This document shows positions 10,374-23,638 of a DNA stretch of 48,680 nt, one piece after another. Numbering within the stretch: position 1 is the stretch's first letter; each line of letters opens with the position of its first letter. This DNA comes from a virus (lineage: Duplodnaviria; Heunggongvirae; Uroviricota; Caudoviricetes), in the IMG/VR virus record IMGVR_UViG_647533159_000004; one strand, written 5' to 3'. Below the pieces are notes generated by a model. The model had not been told where the DNA came from. It saw only the letters and a list, made by a program, of their open reading frames with translations, and searched no databases. The translations under genes were made by a program, and so were the position numbers.

Positions 10374-11240
10374 NNNNNNNNNNNNNNNNNNNNNNNNNNN
10401 NNNNNNNNNNNNNNNNNNNNNNNNNNNNNNNNNNNNNNNNNNNNNNNNNNNNNNNNNNNNNNNNNNNNNNNNNNNNNNNNNNNNNNNNNNNNNNNNNNNN
10501 NNNNNNNNNNNNNNNNNNNNNNNNNNNNNNNNNNNNNNNNNNNNNNNNNNNNNNNNNNNNNNNNNNNNNNNNNNNNNNNNNNNNNNNNNNNNNNNNNNNN
10601 NNNNNNNNNNNNNNNNNNNNNNNNNNNNNNNNNNNNNNNNNNNNNNNNNNNNNNNNNNNNNNNNNNNNNNNNNNNNNNNNNNNNNNNNNNNNNNNNNNNN
10701 NNNNNNNNNNNNNNNNNNNNNNNNNNNNNNNNNNNNNNNNNNNNNNNNNNNNNNNNNNNNNNNNNNNNNNNNNNNNNNNNNNNNNNNNNNNNNNNNNNNN
10801 NNNNNNNNNNNNNNNNNNNNNNNNNNNNNNNNNNNNNNNNNNNNNNNNNNNNNNNNNNNNNNNNNNNNNNNNNNNNNNNNNNNNNNNNNNNNNNNNNNNN
10901 NNNNNNNNNNNNNNNNNNNNNNNNNNNNNNNNNNNNNNNNNNNNNNNNNNNNNNNNNNNNNNNNNNNNNNNNNNNNNNNNNNNNNNNNNNNNNNNNNNNN
11001 NNNNNNNNNNNNNNNNNNNNNNNNNNNNNNNNNNNNNNNNNNNNNNNNNNNNNNNNNNNNNNNNNNNNNNNNNNNNNNNNNNNNNNNNNNNNNNNNNNNN
11101 NNNNNNNNNNNNNNNNNNNNNNNNNNNNNNNNNNNNNNNNNNNNNNNNNNNNNNNNNNNNNNNNNNNNNNNNNNNNNNNNNNNNNNNNNNNNNNNNNNNN
11201 NNNNNNNNNNNNNNNNNNNNNNNNNNNNNNNNNNNNNNNN
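10374..11240. other. Assembly gap (867 N)
   Basis: Run of n characters. Confidence 1.
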
Positions 11241-12123: not shown

Positions 12124-12585
12124 TTATTTGTTTTGTAATGCTTTTTTTACAACCATAAGCATAGAACTAATGACTTCCAGTGTAATATTTAATGACAATG
12201 CAATGGATAATATTTCAAATGTGGTAAATAATCGCGCTCTTGACATAAAAAAATCCCATTTTGGATATTCTAGCAAAGGTATATCTATCTCCCTTAAATA
12301 AGGAATAAAAACGGATGCACCAAGACAAAAAATCAGGATTTTTAAATCTAATTCCAGCTTGACAAAATAATCATCAAATACATGTTTATTATTTTGAGGG
12401 CAGATGTTGATTAGCATGCTAAAAATCACTGATATACCAGCGATGATGCCACCTAAGGTGGCACCAATAATACCAGCTGAAGACTGTTCGATTATAGAGT
12501 AAGTGTTTTTATCCTCTGAGGAAAAAATAAAGCAAATTACACCAATAACAATTAGTCTCACCATCAAGGTTGCTAGTTTTTGCAT
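12124..12585 (-). CDS. Small membrane protein, 153 aa, about four predicted TM helices; downstream gene of the cassette
   Basis: ATG at 12585; hydrophobic segments; 13-nt overlap with upstream gene; AT-rich. Confidence 0.65.
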   Translation of the reverse strand: MQKLATLMVRLIVIGVICFIFSSEDKNTYSIIEQSSAGIIGATLGGIIAGISVIFSMLINICPQNNKHVFDDYFVKLELDLKILIFCLGASVFIPYLREIDIPLLEYPKWDFFMSRARLFTTFEILSIALSLNITLEVISSMLMVVKKALQNK

Positions 12586-13457
12586 TTTTCAAACCGATAA
12601 TCTTTTCTTACTAGGGAAATAATGTCCTTTACGTCATTTGCAGAATAACCACTTAATGTGCATTCTGAAAGAGAACCATCTACAAAAATTAATTTTGCTG
12701 TAGGCTCACTATTTAAAGTAATACTTTTGGCTGTAGGACTCTTTTTCCCTTTTATCTGCCAACTTCCTCCGCCATCATTAGTCCAATCAACTAAAACATT
12801 TGCCCATGTGGAATCACGAAGATTAAGATTTCCATCTTTATTTTCAAATGTTGTGGTTAGAGCAGTAGCATTGGTATCATCTTCTATTTTGTTTAAGGCG
12901 TCTGTTAGTGCTTTTTTACTATCCCCAAAAATATTTGGCATAACAAGAGCAAATGTCACTTGCTCAATATGCCTTAACTTGTCATATTCAACCCAAAAGT
13001 TGTCCTTCTCCAGACAAGGTTCAATAAATATGCGTAATCCTTTTTCGACGAGGTAATCATTGTTAGATAATTCCTCAAACATCATTGCCGCATTGTGAGC
13101 ACTTTTAAAAACAGTGGTTTTTCGTTCAATTAAAATAACTTGTTCTTGACGATCCCATAACCATACTACAGGAGGGAAACTTGGAACATTGTATTCTTGA
13201 AAGTCCTCATTGTAACCATGCAGTTTCTTTTGTTTCGAAATCAAACCTGCCATGACCCCATCAGTCGGGGCGACAGAAAGTTTTAATCTATACTGCCAGT
13301 TTTTATGGACAGATGGTGTTTGTGACACTCGTTTTATATTTTTTGATGCGTGAACGATCGCTTGCTCAAAGTGTTCAATACATCGCTCTTCGCCACTATG
13401 CTGAAACAAATCTGGATCTCTGGGCTTTAATAGTACGCGTAAAGCAAAAAAATACAT
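12573..13457 (-). CDS. Hypothetical soluble protein, about 294 aa; upstream gene of the cassette
   Basis: ATG at 13455-13457 with GGAGA SD; the ORF-track start at 13493 is a GTG; no motif recognised. Confidence 0.65.
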   Translation of the reverse strand: MYFFALRVLLKPRDPDLFQHSGEERCIEHFEQAIVHASKNIKRVSQTPSVHKNWQYRLKLSVAPTDGVMAGLISKQKKLHGYNEDFQEYNVPSFPPVVWLWDRQEQVILIERKTTVFKSAHNAAMMFEELSNNDYLVEKGLRIFIEPCLEKDNFWVEYDKLRHIEQVTFALVMPNIFGDSKKALTDALNKIEDDTNATALTTTFENKDGNLNLRDSTWANVLVDWTNDGGGSWQIKGKKSPTAKSITLNSEPTAKLIFVDGSLSECTLSGYSANDVKDIISLVRKDYRFEKCKN

Positions 13458-13684
13458 TGAGAATCTCCATATAAAGTTTACCGCTATTATCACTATTCCG
13501 AGGAAACATTCAATGGGGGGGGCTTCAAACTAAAATTGTTGGCAGCAACATGTCCGATAGGTAGAATTGCTGCGGGTGCTTGAGGCTATCTGCCTCGAGC
13601 ATGTCACCAAAGGCAGATAGAGAAAAGTCCCAGTTAACATTCGGCGTCCGGCAAGACGCTTAACATTAATCTGAGGCCATATCT

Positions 13685-17827: not shown

Positions 17828-18205
17828 ATGTCGGGTAAATTCAGATTCAGCCGTCGCAGTCAAAAAAATCTGGAGGGCGTCAAACCACAGCTGGTTGCTG
17901 TCGTTCGCCGTGCGCTGGAGCTTACGGAGGTTGATTTCGGTATTACGGAAGGCCTGCGCAGTAAGTATCGCCAGAAACAGCTGGTCGCGGAAGGGAAAAG
18001 CCAGACCATGAACAGCCGCCACCTGACCGGTGATGCGGTGGATGTTGTGGCCTACATTGGTAGCCAGGTGTCATGGGACTGGCCTCTGTACGAGAAAATC
18101 GCGCAGGCATTTAAGCAGGCTGCCGCAGAGCTGGGGACTGCCATCGAATGGGGCGGGGACTGGAAAACACTGAAAGACGGACCTCACTTTCAGTTGAAAC
18201 GCTGA
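17828..18205 (+). CDS. Endolysin, peptidase M15 (VanY-like) family, 125 aa
   Basis: SRHLTGDAVDV ... DGPHFQL zinc-peptidase signature in translation; GAGGTG SD. Confidence 0.8.
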   Translation: MSGKFRFSRRSQKNLEGVKPQLVAVVRRALELTEVDFGITEGLRSKYRQKQLVAEGKSQTMNSRHLTGDAVDVVAYIGSQVSWDWPLYEKIAQAFKQAAAELGTAIEWGGDWKTLKDGPHFQLKR

Positions 18206-18252
18206 TAACCAGGTGTGTTATGAGCAGAAAACACTGGACACACAGAATGCCG

Positions 18253-18408
18253 NNNNNNNNNNNNNNNNNNNNNNNNNNNNNNNNNNNNNNNNNNNNNNNN
18301 NNNNNNNNNNNNNNNNNNNNNNNNNNNNNNNNNNNNNNNNNNNNNNNNNNNNNNNNNNNNNNNNNNNNNNNNNNNNNNNNNNNNNNNNNNNNNNNNNNNN
18401 NNNNNNNN
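18253..18408. other. Assembly gap (156 N) flanked by 168-bp exact direct duplication (18085-18252 = 18409-18576)
   Basis: Sequence before and after the N run is identical, duplicating the endolysin 3' end and the next gene's start. Confidence 0.95.
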
Positions 18409-18543
18409 TCTGTACGAGAAAATCGCGCAGGCATTTAAGCAGGCTGCCGCAGAGCTGGGGACTGCCATCGAATGGGGCGGGGACTGGAAAACACTGAAAG
18501 ACGGACCTCACTTTCAGTTGAAACGCTGATAACCAGGTGTGTT

Positions 18544-18726
18544 ATGAGCAGAAAACACTGGACACACAGAATGCCGCGAACGGCGGCGAAATGGGCACTG
18601 GTAGCGATACTGGTGCCTTTTTTTCTGGTGGGATGCGTCAGCCTGGATAAGGCGCGCCAGCTTTTCGATGCGGCTTCTCAGGTCTGCCAGCTTATCGATG
18701 GCGTTCGGCAGTGTCTGCAGAACTGA
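18544..18726 (+). CDS. Small lipoprotein, 60 aa (Rz1/o-spanin-like lysis accessory)
   Basis: Signal peptide with lipobox LVGC; position right after endolysin; truncated duplicate of its 5' end at 18220-18252. Confidence 0.5.
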   Translation: MSRKHWTHRMPRTAAKWALVAILVPFFLVGCVSLDKARQLFDAASQVCQLIDGVRQCLQN

Positions 18727-19197: not shown

Positions 19198-19318
19198 CAG
19201 GCATTACAGCAGCCCTTCAGTGAGGGGCTGCGATAATGTCAAAGCTCGTTATCAGCACCCGCCGCGCACCCAGCGCACTGGCCGATAGCGGGCTTTTTTA
19301 TTCATAAAGCGAGGCTGT

Positions 19319-20110
19319 ATGAGCGAGAAATTGAAGATCGTCTATCGCCCGTTACAAGAACTATCTCCGTATGCACACAATGCCAGGACACACAGCCCTG
19401 AGCAGGTGGCACAACTGGTAGAAAGCATTAAGCAATTCGGCTGGACTAATCCAGTGCTGATTGATGAAAAGGGCGAAATTATTGCTGGTCACGGTCGCGT
19501 TATGGCGGCTGAAGTGCTCAAAATGGATTCCGTTCCGGTCATCGTTCTGTCTGGTCTGACGGATGATCAGAAAAAGGCGTACCGCCTTGCAGATAATCGC
19601 ATGCCGATGAATGCTGGCTGGGATGAAGATCTATTACGGATGGAGCTGTCGGACCTAATCAATGCTGATTTTGATATCTCCCTGACAGGATTCAGTCCGA
19701 CAGAAATTGATGAACTGTTGACGGATGTTTTGCCAGGTACAGGAAATGAGGAGGAGCCGTACACGACGAAAATTGATACGCCTGTTTATGAGCCGTCGGG
19801 CGGTAAACCGGATATCAGTGAACTGTACGACGAAACGAAAACTCAGGAGCTGATCAGCCGGATACGTTCGGCGTCCCTTGAGCCTGATATTGAGAAATTC
19901 CTCCTGTGTGCGGCAGAACGTCACACGGTGTTTAATTTCAGCAGAATTGCGGACTATTACGCTCACGCCCCTGCTGAAATTCAGTGCCTTTTCGAGGAGT
20001 CGGCGCTGGTGATCATTGATTATCAGCAGGCTATTGAAAATGGATTTGTCCGGATGACGCAGCGTATGGTGGAGATCATGCATGGCGGGGAGGAGGAGGA
20101 ATATGCGTGA
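19319..20110 (+). CDS. ParB-like nuclease-domain (ParB/Srx) protein, 263 aa
   Basis: N-terminal ParB-type motif (LIDEKGEIIAGHGRVMAA...); GAGG SD. Confidence 0.7.
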   Translation: MSEKLKIVYRPLQELSPYAHNARTHSPEQVAQLVESIKQFGWTNPVLIDEKGEIIAGHGRVMAAEVLKMDSVPVIVLSGLTDDQKKAYRLADNRMPMNAGWDEDLLRMELSDLINADFDISLTGFSPTEIDELLTDVLPGTGNEEEPYTTKIDTPVYEPSGGKPDISELYDETKTQELISRIRSASLEPDIEKFLLCAAERHTVFNFSRIADYYAHAPAEIQCLFEESALVIIDYQQAIENGFVRMTQRMVEIMHGGEEEEYA

Positions 20111-21035
20111 TGATTTTTGCGCCTTTATTCTGACTCACGGGCGACCGGACAAAGTTCTGACTTACCGGACGTTGCGTCGTGCTGGCTATACCGGGAAAAT
20201 TTTTATCGTTGTTGATGATGAAGATAAGACACGGCATCAGTACATAGCTGAATTTGGTGAACAGGTGCTGGTGTTTTCCAAAGCCGATATCGCCAGTCGT
20301 TTTGACGAAGCCGATAATTTCGGTGACCGCCGCTCAATTTTTTACGCCCGTAATGCCTGTTTCGACCTGGCAAAACTGGTCGGGTGTAAATACTTCATTC
20401 AGCTCGATGATGATTATCACGAGTTCCAGTTTCGGGTGGATCGCAACTATGACCAGGCCTATTTTCCGATAAGTAAACTGGATGCGATCCTTTCTGAAAT
20501 GCTGGCGTATTACGAATCAATACCTGCGCTTTCCATCGCTATGTCGCAGGGCGGGGATTTTCTTGGTGACAATGGCGGCCATGCTTCGTGGGTGAAACGC
20601 AAGGCAATGAACAGCTTTATCTGTTCGGTTGATCGACCGTTCTCATTCATGGGGCGCATTAACGAGGATGTGAATACGTACACGAATCTCGGTCGCCGTG
20701 GTGAATTGTTTATGACGATCGGTGCTGTCCAGTTAGGGCAGAAACAGACGCAGAAAAACAGTGGCGGAATGACCGAGCTGTATCTGGATTCCGGAACCTA
20801 CGTTAAAAGTTTTTACTCCGTCATGTATGCGCCGTCGTGCGTAAAAATCTCACTGATGGGCGCCAGCCATAAACGCATTCACCATCAGGTCACCTGGAAC
20901 AACGCTGCAGTAAAAATCCTTCACGAAAAATACAGGAAGAAGACACCCTGCATATCAATGGGGGTGACAAATGATTCCGTATTCGAAAGTCGAGTCTCTG
21001 GCAGCGTGCCGGATGACTGCACAACAAATCGCTGA
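20103..21035 (+). CDS. Hypothetical protein with GT-A-like (DxD) features, 310 aa
   Basis: ATG at 20103 with GGAGGAGGAGG SD; FIVVDDED and IQLDDDY acidic motifs; 8-nt overlap with ParB-like gene. Confidence 0.55.
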   Translation: MRDDFCAFILTHGRPDKVLTYRTLRRAGYTGKIFIVVDDEDKTRHQYIAEFGEQVLVFSKADIASRFDEADNFGDRRSIFYARNACFDLAKLVGCKYFIQLDDDYHEFQFRVDRNYDQAYFPISKLDAILSEMLAYYESIPALSIAMSQGGDFLGDNGGHASWVKRKAMNSFICSVDRPFSFMGRINEDVNTYTNLGRRGELFMTIGAVQLGQKQTQKNSGGMTELYLDSGTYVKSFYSVMYAPSCVKISLMGASHKRIHHQVTWNNAAVKILHEKYRKKTPCISMGVTNDSVFESRVSGSVPDDCTTNR

Positions 21036-21222
21036 CGTTCTGGATGTTGATCTGAACCGACTGAAAGAAAATCGGGAAGCAATGACAAATTTTTACGCGT
21101 CCATCCGTAAGGGCAGAGCGAAAGGTGAAGCCGAGCTACGGGCGGCATTGTTTAAGCTTGCCAGAAAAGGGGATGCCTTTGCCCTGCGCGAACTACTCAG
21201 GGTGGATAAAAATCAGGATTAA
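20971..21222 (+). CDS. Small HTH-like protein, 83 aa
   Basis: ATG at 20971 with GGGGTGA SD; overlaps the 3' end of the preceding gene by 65 nt in another frame. Confidence 0.45.
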   Translation: MIPYSKVESLAACRMTAQQIADVLDVDLNRLKENREAMTNFYASIRKGRAKGEAELRAALFKLARKGDAFALRELLRVDKNQD

Positions 21223-21225
21223 CTG

Positions 21226-22320
21226 ATGAGCAGACCGGACTGGGGGGCGTTGCAGCAGGAGTACATTGCTGAATACACCCGCTCCGGTATATCTCCGGTG
21301 GCATGGTGTGAAGCAAGGGGACTGAATTACGCAACAGCCCGTCGTTACATCAAAAAACCTCCGAAAAATGTGCAGGCAGAAGTGCGCAAACCTGCGCAAA
21401 AAAGTGCGCAGAAAAAATCTGCGCAGACTGCGCACAAGCGGAACGGAAAATCTCAGAAAAAAAAGCCAGTATCCTATGCGTGCCTGAATGAGGGCGACGC
21501 GGAGGAAATATCATTCTGTCCCGATGAATTTGGCATTTCTGACCAGCAGGCAAAATTCGCCATGCTGGTTGCCCAGGGTAAAAAGCCCACTGAGGCATAC
21601 CGACTGGCTGGGTATGAAGGGGAAGGAAACACTGCATGGGTAGCAGCCTCTCGTTTGTACAGGAATGATAAGGTTTTTCGTGCTATCAGCTACTTCCGCA
21701 ATCAGTACCAGAAACGCTATACCGCAGACCTGGATTTACTGGTGAGTCAGTTGATGGCCATTGTCCAGGCCGACCCCAATCAGCTTGCACAATTTCGCCG
21801 TGTTAACTGCCGTTATTGCTGGGGCGAGAACCATCTCTACCAGTGGCGCGATATTGAGGAATTCGATAAAGCCGCAGAGAAGGCCAGCAAGGACGGTAAA
21901 CCTGCGCCTGAGTATGGCGGTCTCGGATTCGTTGATAACGCTATACCCAATCCTGACTGCCCGAAATGCTGTGGTGAGGGGCGGGGAGAAATCCATATTG
22001 CCGATACCACCCTGCTTGATGGTGATGCGCGACTGCTTTATGCCGGGGCCAAGTACGGGAAATTCGGCGTCGAAATACTGATGGAGGACAAAAGCGCAGC
22101 GCGACGCGAACTCCTGAAGTATCTGACGACTGTGAAAAAGCCGTTGCCGGAAAATAAAGAAGGATCTGCAAATAGGGATCTGGATGATGAATGGAAACGC
22201 CTGCGCAATGAAAAACTGCGCACCGAGATTGAAAACCTCAAGAAAGGCGCTGGTGGCGCTAATAACCAAATAATTATTCACAACTCTCTGCCGATGCCGG
22301 GAGTGGATAATGTCGATTGA
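21226..22320 (+). CDS. Terminase small subunit (N-terminal HTH, C-terminal Cys cluster), 364 aa
   Basis: HTH near N-terminus; terminase-small-like central region; immediately upstream of and overlapping large terminase. Confidence 0.6.
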   Translation: MSRPDWGALQQEYIAEYTRSGISPVAWCEARGLNYATARRYIKKPPKNVQAEVRKPAQKSAQKKSAQTAHKRNGKSQKKKPVSYACLNEGDAEEISFCPDEFGISDQQAKFAMLVAQGKKPTEAYRLAGYEGEGNTAWVAASRLYRNDKVFRAISYFRNQYQKRYTADLDLLVSQLMAIVQADPNQLAQFRRVNCRYCWGENHLYQWRDIEEFDKAAEKASKDGKPAPEYGGLGFVDNAIPNPDCPKCCGEGRGEIHIADTTLLDGDARLLYAGAKYGKFGVEILMEDKSAARRELLKYLTTVKKPLPENKEGSANRDLDDEWKRLRNEKLRTEIENLKKGAGGANNQIIIHNSLPMPGVDNVD

Positions 22321-23638
22321 AATTTTCCTTCCAAAGCCTCACGAGGGGCAAATTGCCGCATGGACGGCGGCAATAGAAGAGCGTTTCCATGCGGTATGTT
22401 GTGGTCGCCGTTGGGGTAAAACGGTGATGCTGGTGAACATCGCCACCAGTTATGCCACCAGACGATTTGCAGTGCCCACTACCGGGCAGTTGATAGCTGG
22501 CAGGGTGGGAATCTTTACCGCTCAATACCGTCAGTACCAGGAAATCTGGGACGAGATTTGCGCTGCACTGCAACCACTGATACTCAGTCAGTCCAAGAAC
22601 GAAAAACGAATCATCCTTCGCAATGGGGGACGCATCGATTTTTGGGTAACGGACAATAACAAACTGGCCGGGCGTGGGCGTAAGTATCACGCTGTGCTGA
22701 TTGATGAGGCCGCATTCACTAAATCGCCGGAAATGCTCGAGGAAATATGGCCCCGCGCTATACGCCCGACGCTTGTCGATTACCGTGGCTGTGCGTGGGT
22801 ATTTTCCACACCAAACGGTATCGACGAGAGCAATTTTTTCTACGCGATATGCCACGATGAATCCCTGGGATTTGTCATGCACCATGCGCCAACTTCATCG
22901 AATCCGTACATTCCGAAAGAAGAACTGGAGGAAACGGAGAAGAAATCCGATCCGCGTGTCTGGCAGCAGGAATATCTTGCCGAGTTCGTGGACTGGTCGA
23001 AAGACGCGTTACTCGATGTCGATAAGCTGCTGGTGGACGGTCAGCCGATTGAGATGCCGCCGCATTGCGACATGATTTTCGCAGTGATGGATACGGCGCT
23101 GAAAGGCGGGACCGAAAATGATGGTACTGGCGTGGTGTATTTCGCTTATGAGTCAACGTATTCGGACGAGCCAAAACTGACGATTATTGACTGGGATGTG
23201 ACGCAAATTAAAGCGTCATTGCTTCCTGAATATATCCCCGGCGTTTATGACAACCTTGAGCGCCTGGCTAAATTATGCCGTCCGCGTCTGGGCAGCCAGG
23301 GAATTTTTATGGAAGACGCTGCGATGGGGGCAATCCTCAACCAGAAGGCGGAAACCGAAGGCTGGGATATGACGCCGATTAAATCGGCACTAACCAGCAA
23401 AGGCAAAGACGAACGGGCGGTGATGGCATCCAGCTACCACTATCAGGGGATGTGCAAAATCGTCCGGGAGGCTTACGACAAGACCGTTTCATTCAAACGC
23501 ACCACCGCAAACCACCTCATTAAGCAAATAGCCGGGTTCCACCTGGCAGACAAAGACGCACATAAACGTGCTGATGACCTTTTCGATTGTTACACCTACG
23601 GATTGATTATCGCGCACGGTAATTACGCGGCGTTGTAA
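22310..23638 (+). CDS. Terminase large subunit, 442 aa
   Basis: Walker A-like GRRWGKT; acidic nuclease-type C-terminal half; followed by portal. Confidence 0.85.
   Translation: MSIEIFLPKPHEGQIAAWTAAIEERFHAVCCGRRWGKTVMLVNIATSYATRRFAVPTTGQLIAGRVGIFTAQYRQYQEIWDEICAALQPLILSQSKNEKRIILRNGGRIDFWVTDNNKLAGRGRKYHAVLIDEAAFTKSPEMLEEIWPRAIRPTLVDYRGCAWVFSTPNGIDESNFFYAICHDESLGFVMHHAPTSSNPYIPKEELEETEKKSDPRVWQQEYLAEFVDWSKDALLDVDKLLVDGQPIEMPPHCDMIFAVMDTALKGGTENDGTGVVYFAYESTYSDEPKLTIIDWDVTQIKASLLPEYIPGVYDNLERLAKLCRPRLGSQGIFMEDAAMGAILNQKAETEGWDMTPIKSALTSKGKDERAVMASSYHYQGMCKIVREAYDKTVSFKRTTANHLIKQIAGFHLADKDAHKRADDLFDCYTYGLIIAHGNYAAL

Follow-up and report, generated by a model that had tools for sequence, protein, structure and literature searches.

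The window considered here, by which we mean the whole 48,680-nt stretch of IMG/VR virus record IMGVR_UViG_647533159_000004 (Caudoviricetes), is a Rac-type lambdoid prophage of Escherichia coli. Beside its packaging genes it carries a two-gene unit coding for a 263-residue protein with a ParB-like N-terminal domain and a 310-residue glycosyltransferase of the TET-associated glycosyltransferase family (TAGT, Pfam PF20691). The C-terminal half of the ParB-like protein is a conserved and obligate genetic partner domain of the transferase. From its sequence, the transferase is well supported as a predicted active, basic and metal-dependent GT-A nucleotide-sugar transferase that belongs to a DNA-glycosylating family and has a dedicated partner. 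Considering the two proteins together, we favor a late-expressed, adaptor-dependent DNA glycosylation module that would act around packaging, a reading that we regard as evenly poised.

The pairing was assessed in 80 diverse IMG/VR loci, using as query an alignment of distant family members, earlier scans having given almost only near-identical enterobacterial prophages. The TAGTs recovered are 47-60% identical to the lead sequence of this alignment, and TAGTs at such a distance are roughly 40-57% identical to the window transferase. Seventy-seven loci were informative, meaning that at least 400 nt were available upstream of the TAGT, and the partner domain was found in all of them. In 72 of the 77 it lies directly upstream, usually overlapping the transferase gene by 4-26 nt: together with a ParB domain in 53 loci, as the domain alone in 12, and cut by the end of the contig in 7. 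The five other loci comprise a single fusion protein of ParB domain, partner and TAGT (locus L152, 7272-8840), one partner directly downstream of the TAGT, and three partners within 4 kb of it. Likewise, the ParB gene is directly upstream of the transferase gene in 8 of 8 genome loci, and the pair is present in the cultured phages c5 (Lactobacillus), NTR1 (Nocardia) and phi jlb1, in a Porphyromonas phage and in the haloarchaeal virus HHTV-2, while Vibrio phage pv27 carries it with the stand-alone form of the partner. Some loci hold tandem pairs of partner and TAGT, and others a single partner ahead of as many as five TAGT paralogues. No partner gene accompanies the distant TAGT of the T4-like phage Aeh1, and this implies that the partner-associated TAGTs are a separate functional class. 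As an observation apart, the NTR1 protein (Orf1; L185, 3-848) keeps the C-terminal partner domain, while the ParB-domain profile finds no match in its N-terminal 155 residues, and the large terminase gene follows the NTR1 pair without an intervening small-terminase reading frame.

The partner domain occupies residues 143-250 (about 105 residues), a region that the preliminary description of this locus had left unassigned and that matches no Pfam family. It begins with a Pro/Tyr-rich segment (PYTTKIDTPVYEPS) and continues into an acidic helical part (…FLxxAAxRH…YYAH…SALVIID…AIENGFV). Its degree of conservation exceeds that of the ParB domain, and among 74 non-identical relatives the pattern YTxKIxxPxYEP … FLxxAAxRHxVFNYxxIAEYYAH … QxLMExSALVIIDxxxAIxNGYV is kept. 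A profile of the domain matches 3721 protein clusters, the best 120 of which are all stand-alone proteins of 122-164 residues without annotated domain. In a co-divergence test that was only moderately informative, the divergence of the transferase followed that of the C-terminal domain and not that of the ParB domain (partial r of 0.56 versus 0.08). The charges of the two proteins are also complementary, with isoelectric points of ~8.1-8.7 for the transferase and ~4.4-4.7 for the partner.

The transferase matches PF20691 with 125.4 bits against a cutoff of 27.5 (E 3.8e-36), the alignment spanning positions 4-205 of the 205 in the profile, that is, its full length, and it matches phrog_842 with an E of 1e-102. 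The fold is that of the GT-A (nucleotide-diphospho-sugar) transferases, and the AlphaFold model is confident across most of the N-terminal 150 residues. A GT-A enzyme had been guessed before from the look of two acidic motifs, FIVVDDED and QLDDDY. Profile and structure searches agree with that guess, and the residues D38, D41 and D102-D104 in these motifs are invariant among 44 transferase homologues. In the close homologues R14, N187, D189 and H261 are invariant as well and E188 nearly so; in the distant TAGTs the Arg is still invariant, as is one Asp of the DxD motif, and the other two DxD aspartates are nearly so. The enzyme reproduces the R…DDD…ED active-site signature described for phage GT-A DNA glycosyltransferases and for the trypanosome base-J glucosyltransferase, JGT (Pyle et al., bioRxiv 10.1101/2023.12.21.572611). 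With 1333 clusters at 50% identity reaching E<=1e-3, the family is large, and some of its members are fused to a class-I methyltransferase, a sulfotransferase, a P-loop kinase-like domain or a second TAGT domain. The N-terminal extensions of long TAGT homologues were considered as candidate ParB fusions and rejected, as they turned out to be P-loop kinase-like domains, methyltransferases or second TAGTs. The transferase gave no match in the PADLOC defence models, in NCBIfam or in a sequence search of the PDB; its closest solved structures are protein and glycan GT-A enzymes, and PGAP and UniRef label its close homologues 'GREB1-related protein'.

At the N-terminus of the partner protein, Pfam ParB_N matches residues 23-88 (E 1.8e-6; 28.3 bits against a cutoff of 26.3), and PGAP gives the ynaK-type name 'ParB/Srx family N-terminal domain-containing protein'. 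Residues 1-135 resemble Noc, KorB, ParB and PadC in a Foldseek search (E 2e-6), in agreement with the ParB/Srx-type motif GHGR reported earlier (G57-H-G-R60, residues 57-60, at 19487-19498). In a profile hidden Markov model alignment to Noc and ParB, GHGR falls over GERR, with Gly59 at its first Arg, and ADN over IEN, with D92-N93 at the ENxxR box. Both R60, the phosphate-binding Arg, and N93 are retained and invariant in the ParB-like proteins, and nucleotide binding by this domain is plausible. The name 'nuclease', used in the preliminary description, is outdated, given that the domain aligns to the CTP-binding fold, retaining R60 and N93 but carrying His where the catalytic Glu would be. 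Its matches further include the N-terminal parts of ParB-methyltransferase fusions from phages (phrog_498, E 4e-51; PADLOC MTase_II, E 1.9e-38). The partition-ParB model TIGR00180 reaches only 36.8 bits, under its cutoff of 58.45, and covers the N-terminal domain alone. No helix-turn-helix domain was found in the protein, and no ParA gene in the window or in a near-identical, annotated E. coli prophage (hereafter the annotated relative).

The two genes are translationally coupled. Their reading frames, the 8-nt overlap (20103-20110) and the Shine-Dalgarno sequence of the second gene are as previously described, and this sequence, GGGGAGGAGGAGG, drives coupled translation from ATG 20103. An alternative ATG upstream, at 20082, extends the transferase reading frame; the start is placed at 20103 because the homologues begin with MRDDF and this ATG comes after GGGGAGGAGGAGG, giving the 310-residue protein. 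No sigma-70-like promoter was found directly upstream of the pair in a promoter search. Given its position downstream of Q and the lysis genes and the lack of a promoter of its own, the pair is expected to be transcribed with the late operon and to be silent in the lysogen. Purifying selection acts on both genes (pN/pS, nonsynonymous over synonymous, of ~0.12-0.16/0.78 for the glycosyltransferase and ~0.23/0.75 for ParB), and 889 of 5426 complete E. coli genomes contain the intact pair. Beside these intact copies, E. coli F9792 (NZ_CP024273.1; L175, 20001-20258) carries a prophage 98% identical to this one in which PGAP calls the ParB-like gene an incomplete pseudogene and the transferase is whole, and truncated versions of both proteins are common in the protein database, for example as 182- and 256-residue clusters with hundreds of members.

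The position beside the packaging genes, pointed out in the preliminary description, is tightly conserved in the relatives. The form with the ParB domain stands directly before terminases of unrelated families (Terminase_4/TerL_ATPase, GpA, Terminase_6N and gp3-type), and in Lactobacillus phage c5 the pair provides the first genes after cos. In lambdoid prophages, ParB-methyltransferase fusions fill the same slot ahead of the terminase genes. The stand-alone partner is embedded among replication genes (DNA polymerase A, sliding clamp, primase, DnaB and RecA), and these loci often also carry an NAD-epimerase, a cytidylyltransferase or a radical-SAM enzyme. Together with the methyltransferase, sulfotransferase or second TAGT fused to some transferases, these enzymes suit the tailoring of a glycan and count in favor of the module. 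In four large uncultured phages (L108, 5797-11221; L180, 10001-14559; L181, 9048-12289; L182, 10001-12578) a stand-alone partner is followed by two to five TAGTs with a cytidylyltransferase-like or radical-SAM gene interleaved, between the genes for DNA polymerase A and those for the clamp or RecA; these arrays look like gene clusters for multi-sugar glycans. Separately, in a phage that carries the ParB-TAGT pair, four family-2 glycosyltransferase genes stand in a row just behind the gene for the major capsid protein (L010, 17837-20316; also L011), an arrangement reminiscent of capsid glycosylation systems in phages.

Characterized members of the transferase family act on DNA, among them the second glucosyltransferase of T2 and T6 (PMC13216743, PMC13390438) and the phage GT-A enzymes associated with 5mYOX dioxygenases, which are kin to the base-J glucosyltransferase (bioRxiv 10.1101/2023.12.21.572611). 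The TET/5mYOX-associated phage enzymes belong to PF20691 (Burke, 2021, PMC8256090; Pyle et al., 10.1101/2023.12.21.572611), as does the window enzyme, with which they share the GT-A fold, the R…DDD…ED signature and the phage origin; they are likewise often near ParB-like genes, terminases, epimerases and further glycosyltransferases. They differ in working after a C5-methyltransferase plus a dioxygenase, or after a hydroxymethylase, which produce 5-hydroxymethylcytosine (5hmC) or 5-hydroxymethyluracil (5hmU), whereas the companion in the window is a partner domain of ~105 residues. The T2/T6 beta-glucosyl-HMC-alpha-glucosyltransferase, from the same Pfam family (PMC13216743, PMC13390438), places a second glucose onto glucosyl-5hmC and requires dCMP hydroxymethylase and alpha-glucosyltransferase, neither of which is encoded in the window. 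By tblastn (E<=1e-3) against 50,697 phage records, the window transferase gave no match in Tequatrovirus, and the label 'beta-glucosyl-HMC-alpha-glucosyltransferase' that phrog_842 and many GenBank records attach to this gene is an over-annotation.

For the ParB-like protein, too, the remark of the preliminary description that such domains accompany DNA-modifying enzymes has precedents (PMC13229309, PMC10164549). In the 5mYOX176/ParB176 thymine dioxygenase pairs, ParB176 similarly consists of a ParB-fold N-terminal domain and a C-terminal domain, lacks a DNA-binding domain and is encoded next to its enzyme; it has a disordered linker, it is needed for dioxygenase activity on double-stranded DNA (dsDNA), and the pairs are cognate-specific and often near terminases (PMC13229309). 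ParB176 differs in serving a dioxygenase and in being shorter (194 residues), and the C-terminal domains are likened by description only. DpdB is a ParB-fold partner that enables DpdA to modify dsDNA with 7-deazaguanines (PMC10164549), in this case by the base exchange of a transglycosylase, with DpdB being an ATPase with a DGQQR motif and the system being bacterial and outside any phage late operon. The window protein fits the architecture of both these activators, with a ParB domain, a helical C-terminal domain, no DNA-binding domain and an adjacent enzyme. The prophage ParB-methyltransferase fusions (phrog_498; PADLOC MTase_II; PMC12704722) have N-termini that closely resemble the window ParB domain, and differ in that their effector is a fused methyltransferase, whereas in the window it is a separate glycosyltransferase with a dedicated partner domain.

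By analogy with the ParB-dependent thymine dioxygenases (PMC13229309), DpdB/DpdA (PMC10164549) and the ParB-methyltransferase fusions (PMC12704722), we infer that the partner binds the transferase. The late operon of the phage would then express a glycosylation module of two components. In it, the transferase would move a sugar from a nucleotide-sugar donor, and the 263-residue protein, built from a ParB-type nucleotide-binding domain, the Pro/Tyr-rich segment and the acidic helical domain, would be its dedicated adaptor. The last two elements would dock, and probably dimerize, the basic transferase, while the ParB domain would supply an association with dsDNA gated by nucleoside triphosphate. 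Newly replicated phage DNA might in this way be glycosylated just before or during packaging and so be protected from host nucleases. DNA as the acceptor and a role against restriction, both proposed in the preliminary description, continue to be what we infer.

Several observations weigh against this DNA glycosylation module, and the DNA acceptor is its weak point, since the known enzymes need hydroxy- or hydroxymethyl-pyrimidines and this phage has no means to make them. To our knowledge, all DNA glycosyltransferases require 5hmC, 5hmU, 5-hydroxycytosine or a sugar already on these, and we know of none that acts on a canonical DNA base. The window and the annotated relative were both found to lack a TET/JBP dioxygenase, a thymidylate-synthase-like hydroxymethylase and a C5-methyltransferase, and TET/JBP enzymes, pyrimidine hydroxymethylases and C5-methyltransferases are equally absent from the Pfam-annotated flanks of the relatives, a comparison that covers the flanks and not the whole genomes of the large phages. 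A TET/JBP enzyme or other source of hydroxymethyl-pyrimidines as neighbor, the feature for which the TAGT family is named, is therefore missing here, and phage c5 has a genome of only 31.8 kb. In addition, the position of the catalytic Glu of ParB CTPases is taken by His58, the stand-alone versions of the C-terminal domain show that many phages can do without the ParB domain, and the partner domain is strongly acidic with no recognizable DNA-binding domain and has a helical AF2 model of low confidence. The rank correlation in the co-divergence test was weak (Spearman 0.25, Pearson 0.75). Finally, GREB1, a relative of the TAGT family, is reported to be a protein O-GlcNAc transferase (PMC7968844).

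Without a pathway to hydroxymethyl- or hydroxy-pyrimidines, the acceptor would be either a group of canonical DNA or something unrecognized. That the transferase and its partner glycosylate a canonical component of dsDNA, such as an exocyclic base amine or the backbone, with no prior hydroxymethylation or hydroxylation, is doubtful in our view; if true, two genes would here produce a kind of DNA modification not known before.

The alternative that survives best is that the transferase glycosylates a protein and not DNA, which we hold to be unlikely. In its most specific version the partner itself would, as glycogenin does, serve as acceptor or primer, through the near-invariant Tyr/Thr of the disordered PYTxK…P.YEP segment; the additional TAGT paralogues of some loci would lengthen the glycan, and the ParB domain could bring the glycoprotein to DNA or to the capsid. 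Packaging or virion proteins are other possible acceptors. This would account for the conservation, at 90% or more, of Y148, P155 and Y157 in a segment that is unstructured in AF2, and for the strict one-to-one pairing, which includes the tandem pairs and the single partners with up to five TAGTs. It also suits an acidic partner without DNA-binding domain, the activity reported for GREB1 (PMC7968844), the presence of glycogenin among the GT-A structural neighbors of the transferase (a likeness at the level of the fold only), and the lack of an enzyme that would generate a DNA acceptor in the window or the annotated relative. A docking motif, however, would explain a conserved disordered segment equally well. 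Moreover, DNA is the substrate of every phage member of the family so far characterized (PMC13216743; 10.1101/2023.12.21.572611), the surroundings of the module are in all cases those of DNA packaging or replication, and its ParB domain is common to the DNA methyltransferase fusions. JGT and GREB1 are themselves only distant GT-A relatives of the TAGT family, likened by description; both are eukaryotic, JGT needs the 5hmU made by JBP, and GREB1 is reported to glycosylate protein (PMC7968844).

It is less probable, and in our judgement improbable, that the module acts on foreign DNA that is already hydroxymethylated, for instance that of co-infecting T-even-like phages, either as a weapon or decoy or as the leftover of a larger TET/hydroxymethylase cluster. 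The name of the family and its characterized acceptors do point to 5hmC, 5hmU or glucosyl-5hmC, and Pyle et al. suggest that prophage glycosyltransferases may hypermodify invading genomes (10.1101/2023.12.21.572611); the large phages with stand-alone partners and TAGT arrays may also encode a hydroxymethylase elsewhere in their genomes. Nevertheless, a late-operon pair without promoter of its own is expected to be silent in the lysogen, and neither purifying selection nor the conservation of the pair in small temperate or cos phages of Lactobacillus, Nocardia, Porphyromonas and haloarchaea agrees with such a role. The Aeh1 TAGT, which sits in a T4-like genome, has no partner.

We consider it very improbable that the transferase modifies a glycan or small molecule other than nucleic acid, such as an envelope polymer (as prophage TarP does with teichoic acid) or a seroconversion target, with the ParB-like protein as an unrelated neighbor or regulator. 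The nearest solved structures are indeed protein and glycan GT-A enzymes, for the phage GT-A enzymes TarP has been reported as the best match in the PDB (10.1101/2023.12.21.572611), and sugar-nucleotide enzymes adjoin some of the loci. A chance neighbor is nonetheless ruled out by the co-occurrence of the partner in 77 of 77 loci, the overlapping frames and the fusion protein. The expression is late and lytic, when remodeling of the envelope is of little use, and the packaging and replication contexts recur in hosts with entirely different envelopes, archaea included. Seroconverting glucosyltransferase operons are, besides, normally found near the integrase and include membrane proteins. Lastly, that the ParB-like protein is a conventional partition (centromere-binding) protein or a nuclease, its pairing with the transferase being mechanistically meaningless, is hardly credible: public records do call it 'chromosome (plasmid) partitioning protein ParB' or 'ParB-like partition nuclease', but the sub-cutoff match to TIGR00180, the missing helix-turn-helix and ParA, the integrated state of a prophage with an integrase and the many partners without any ParB domain stand against it, and the label 'partition protein' is an over-annotation.

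Earlier work had established the enzyme family and its fold, as well as a general tendency of ParB-like genes to occur with DNA-modification clusters in phages (PMC8256090; 10.1101/2023.12.21.572611; PMC13229309). 'Solitary' TAGT homologues of undefined function have been counted in 288 of 753 glycosyltransferase-encoding phage genomes (PMC13216743), and about 65% of mined glycosyltransferase contigs have no hydroxymethyl-pyrimidine enzyme (10.1101/2023.12.21.572611). In the literature searched we found no description of the obligate partner domain (Iyer et al., 2013, who defined the TAGTs, lie outside the comparison, and an earlier mention of TET-less ParB-TAGT pairs is possible), of its modular deployment, joined to a ParB domain beside packaging genes and by itself among replication genes, or of the entire absence of an acceptor-generating enzyme in a well-defined and very common E. 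coli prophage. The locus gives the puzzle of the solitary TAGTs a genetically simple form, with two genes, an inducible-type E. coli prophage and a newly delineated partner domain. The module ranges over a large fraction of E. coli genomes and over phages of Firmicutes, Actinobacteria, Bacteroidota and haloarchaea. The identity of its acceptor could reveal either a new DNA modification chemistry, with relevance for restriction evasion, phage therapy and sequencing artefacts, or protein targets within a family called 'DNA glycosyltransferase'. The locus also extends the emerging theme of ParB-fold proteins as adaptors for DNA-modifying enzymes, and the assignments given here correct two widespread over-annotations, 'beta-glucosyl-HMC-alpha-glucosyltransferase' and 'partition protein'.

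The coordinates of the two-gene unit and of the genes that follow it are given in Table 1.

Table 1. Features of the ParB-like/transferase unit and of the adjoining packaging genes, in window coordinates.
Feature	Coordinates	Strand	Evidence
ParB-like partner gene, 263 aa	19319-20110	+	open reading frame; Pfam ParB_N; phrog_620 (E 6e-90)
ParB/Srx nucleotide-binding-fold domain, aa 1-135	19319-19723	+	Foldseek; profile alignment to Noc/ParB
TAGT-partner domain, aa 143-250	19745-20068	+	conservation; no Pfam family
Shine-Dalgarno run GGGGAGGAGGAGG, inside the end of the ParB gene	20087-20099	+	sequence
GT-A glycosyltransferase gene, PF20691 (TAGT), 310 aa	20103-21035	+	Pfam; phrog_842
First acidic motif FIVVDDED, aa 34-41	20202-20225	+	D38, D41 invariant
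QLDDDY, aa 100-105	20400-20417	+	
DxD motif D102-D103-D104, metal/nucleotide-sugar binding	20406-20414	+	invariant
E188-D189 of the NEDVNTY segment, 'ED' of the active-site motif	20664-20669	+	homologue conservation
Non-conserved 23-aa transferase tail and stop codon	20964-21035	+	3'-end comparison with L004, L005, L009; pLDDT <50
83-aa open reading frame, resembling part of a small-terminase family	20971-21222	+	phrog_309 (E 2.5e-22)
Terminase small subunit	21226-22320	+	Pfam Terminase_2; phrog_51 (E 4.7e-69)
Terminase large subunit	22310-23638	+	Pfam Terminase_6N; phrog_2

The 3' end of the transferase gene overlaps the 83-residue reading frame by 65 nt. This overlap, noted earlier together with a call for resequencing, is real, and the resequencing is unnecessary, given that the 310-residue form represents 2693 member sequences and a sequencing error is thereby discarded. 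In the relatives from Pantoea, Superficieibacter and Serratia the transferase is shorter by ~22 codons, its stop coinciding with the ATG of the 83-residue frame or lying only a few nucleotides from it; the Pantoea stop is the TGA contained in GGGGGTGACAAATG. Throughout the E. coli lineage this site is read in another frame, which results in the non-conserved tail of 23 residues, modeled with low confidence, and in the overlap. The 83-residue frame is kept downstream of the pair in the enterobacterial relatives L004, L005 and L009 (tblastn).

By megablast, the segment 19249-22088 moves as one mosaic block, apart from the large terminase. It contains the ParB-like and transferase genes, the 83-residue frame and the N-terminal three quarters (~290 codons) of the small terminase, so that one boundary falls inside the latter gene, and it is ~94% identical to phages that carry another large terminase. 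Between an upstream 115-residue reading frame and the ParB-like gene lies a near-perfect palindrome (19202-19238; 18-nt arms, 1-nt center). It ends exactly where the homology to phiP27-type phages ends, which assigns it to the upstream gene module, and it is probably the terminator of that module. In a search for parS sites this palindrome was rejected as belonging to the upstream mosaic module, and no other repeat was conspicuous.

As for the element as a whole, the integrase gene (1-1236) is followed by RecT/YqaJ-type recombination and DnaT-like replication genes, Q, holin, an M15 endolysin, terminase, portal and tail genes. The annotated relative adjoins ttcA and encodes intR, xisR, ralR, recT, recE and kilR. 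The window has three runs of N (10374-11240, 18253-18408 and 44569-45484), none of which overlaps the two-gene unit. The 152 nt before the second run (18101-18252) recur exactly after it (18425-18576), so two copies exist of the final part of the endolysin gene and of the first part of the small reading frame that follows; the repeat (18101-18576) looks like a 324-bp tandem duplication or an artefact of assembly or masking. The first and third runs have no flanking repeat, and at the position of the first one the annotated relative has replication genes. A dioxygenase hidden in these runs was considered and rejected, the annotated relative having no DNA-modifying enzyme in the stretch compared, which ends before the third run.

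Two further loci deserve mention. The 479-residue protein encoded at 23654-25093 matches a portal family in PHROGs (E 4.6e-75). For the corresponding protein of the annotated relative PGAP gives the name 'anti-CBASS protein Acb1 family protein', in conflict with that match. On the minus strand, between the replication and Nin-like regions, two neighboring reading frames of 152 and 305 residues (12124-13493) match nothing in Pfam, PHROGs, NCBIfam or PADLOC; two neighboring minus-strand frames annotated 'hypothetical protein' occur at the corresponding position of the annotated relative, and these genes may be a moron or unrecognized defence cargo.

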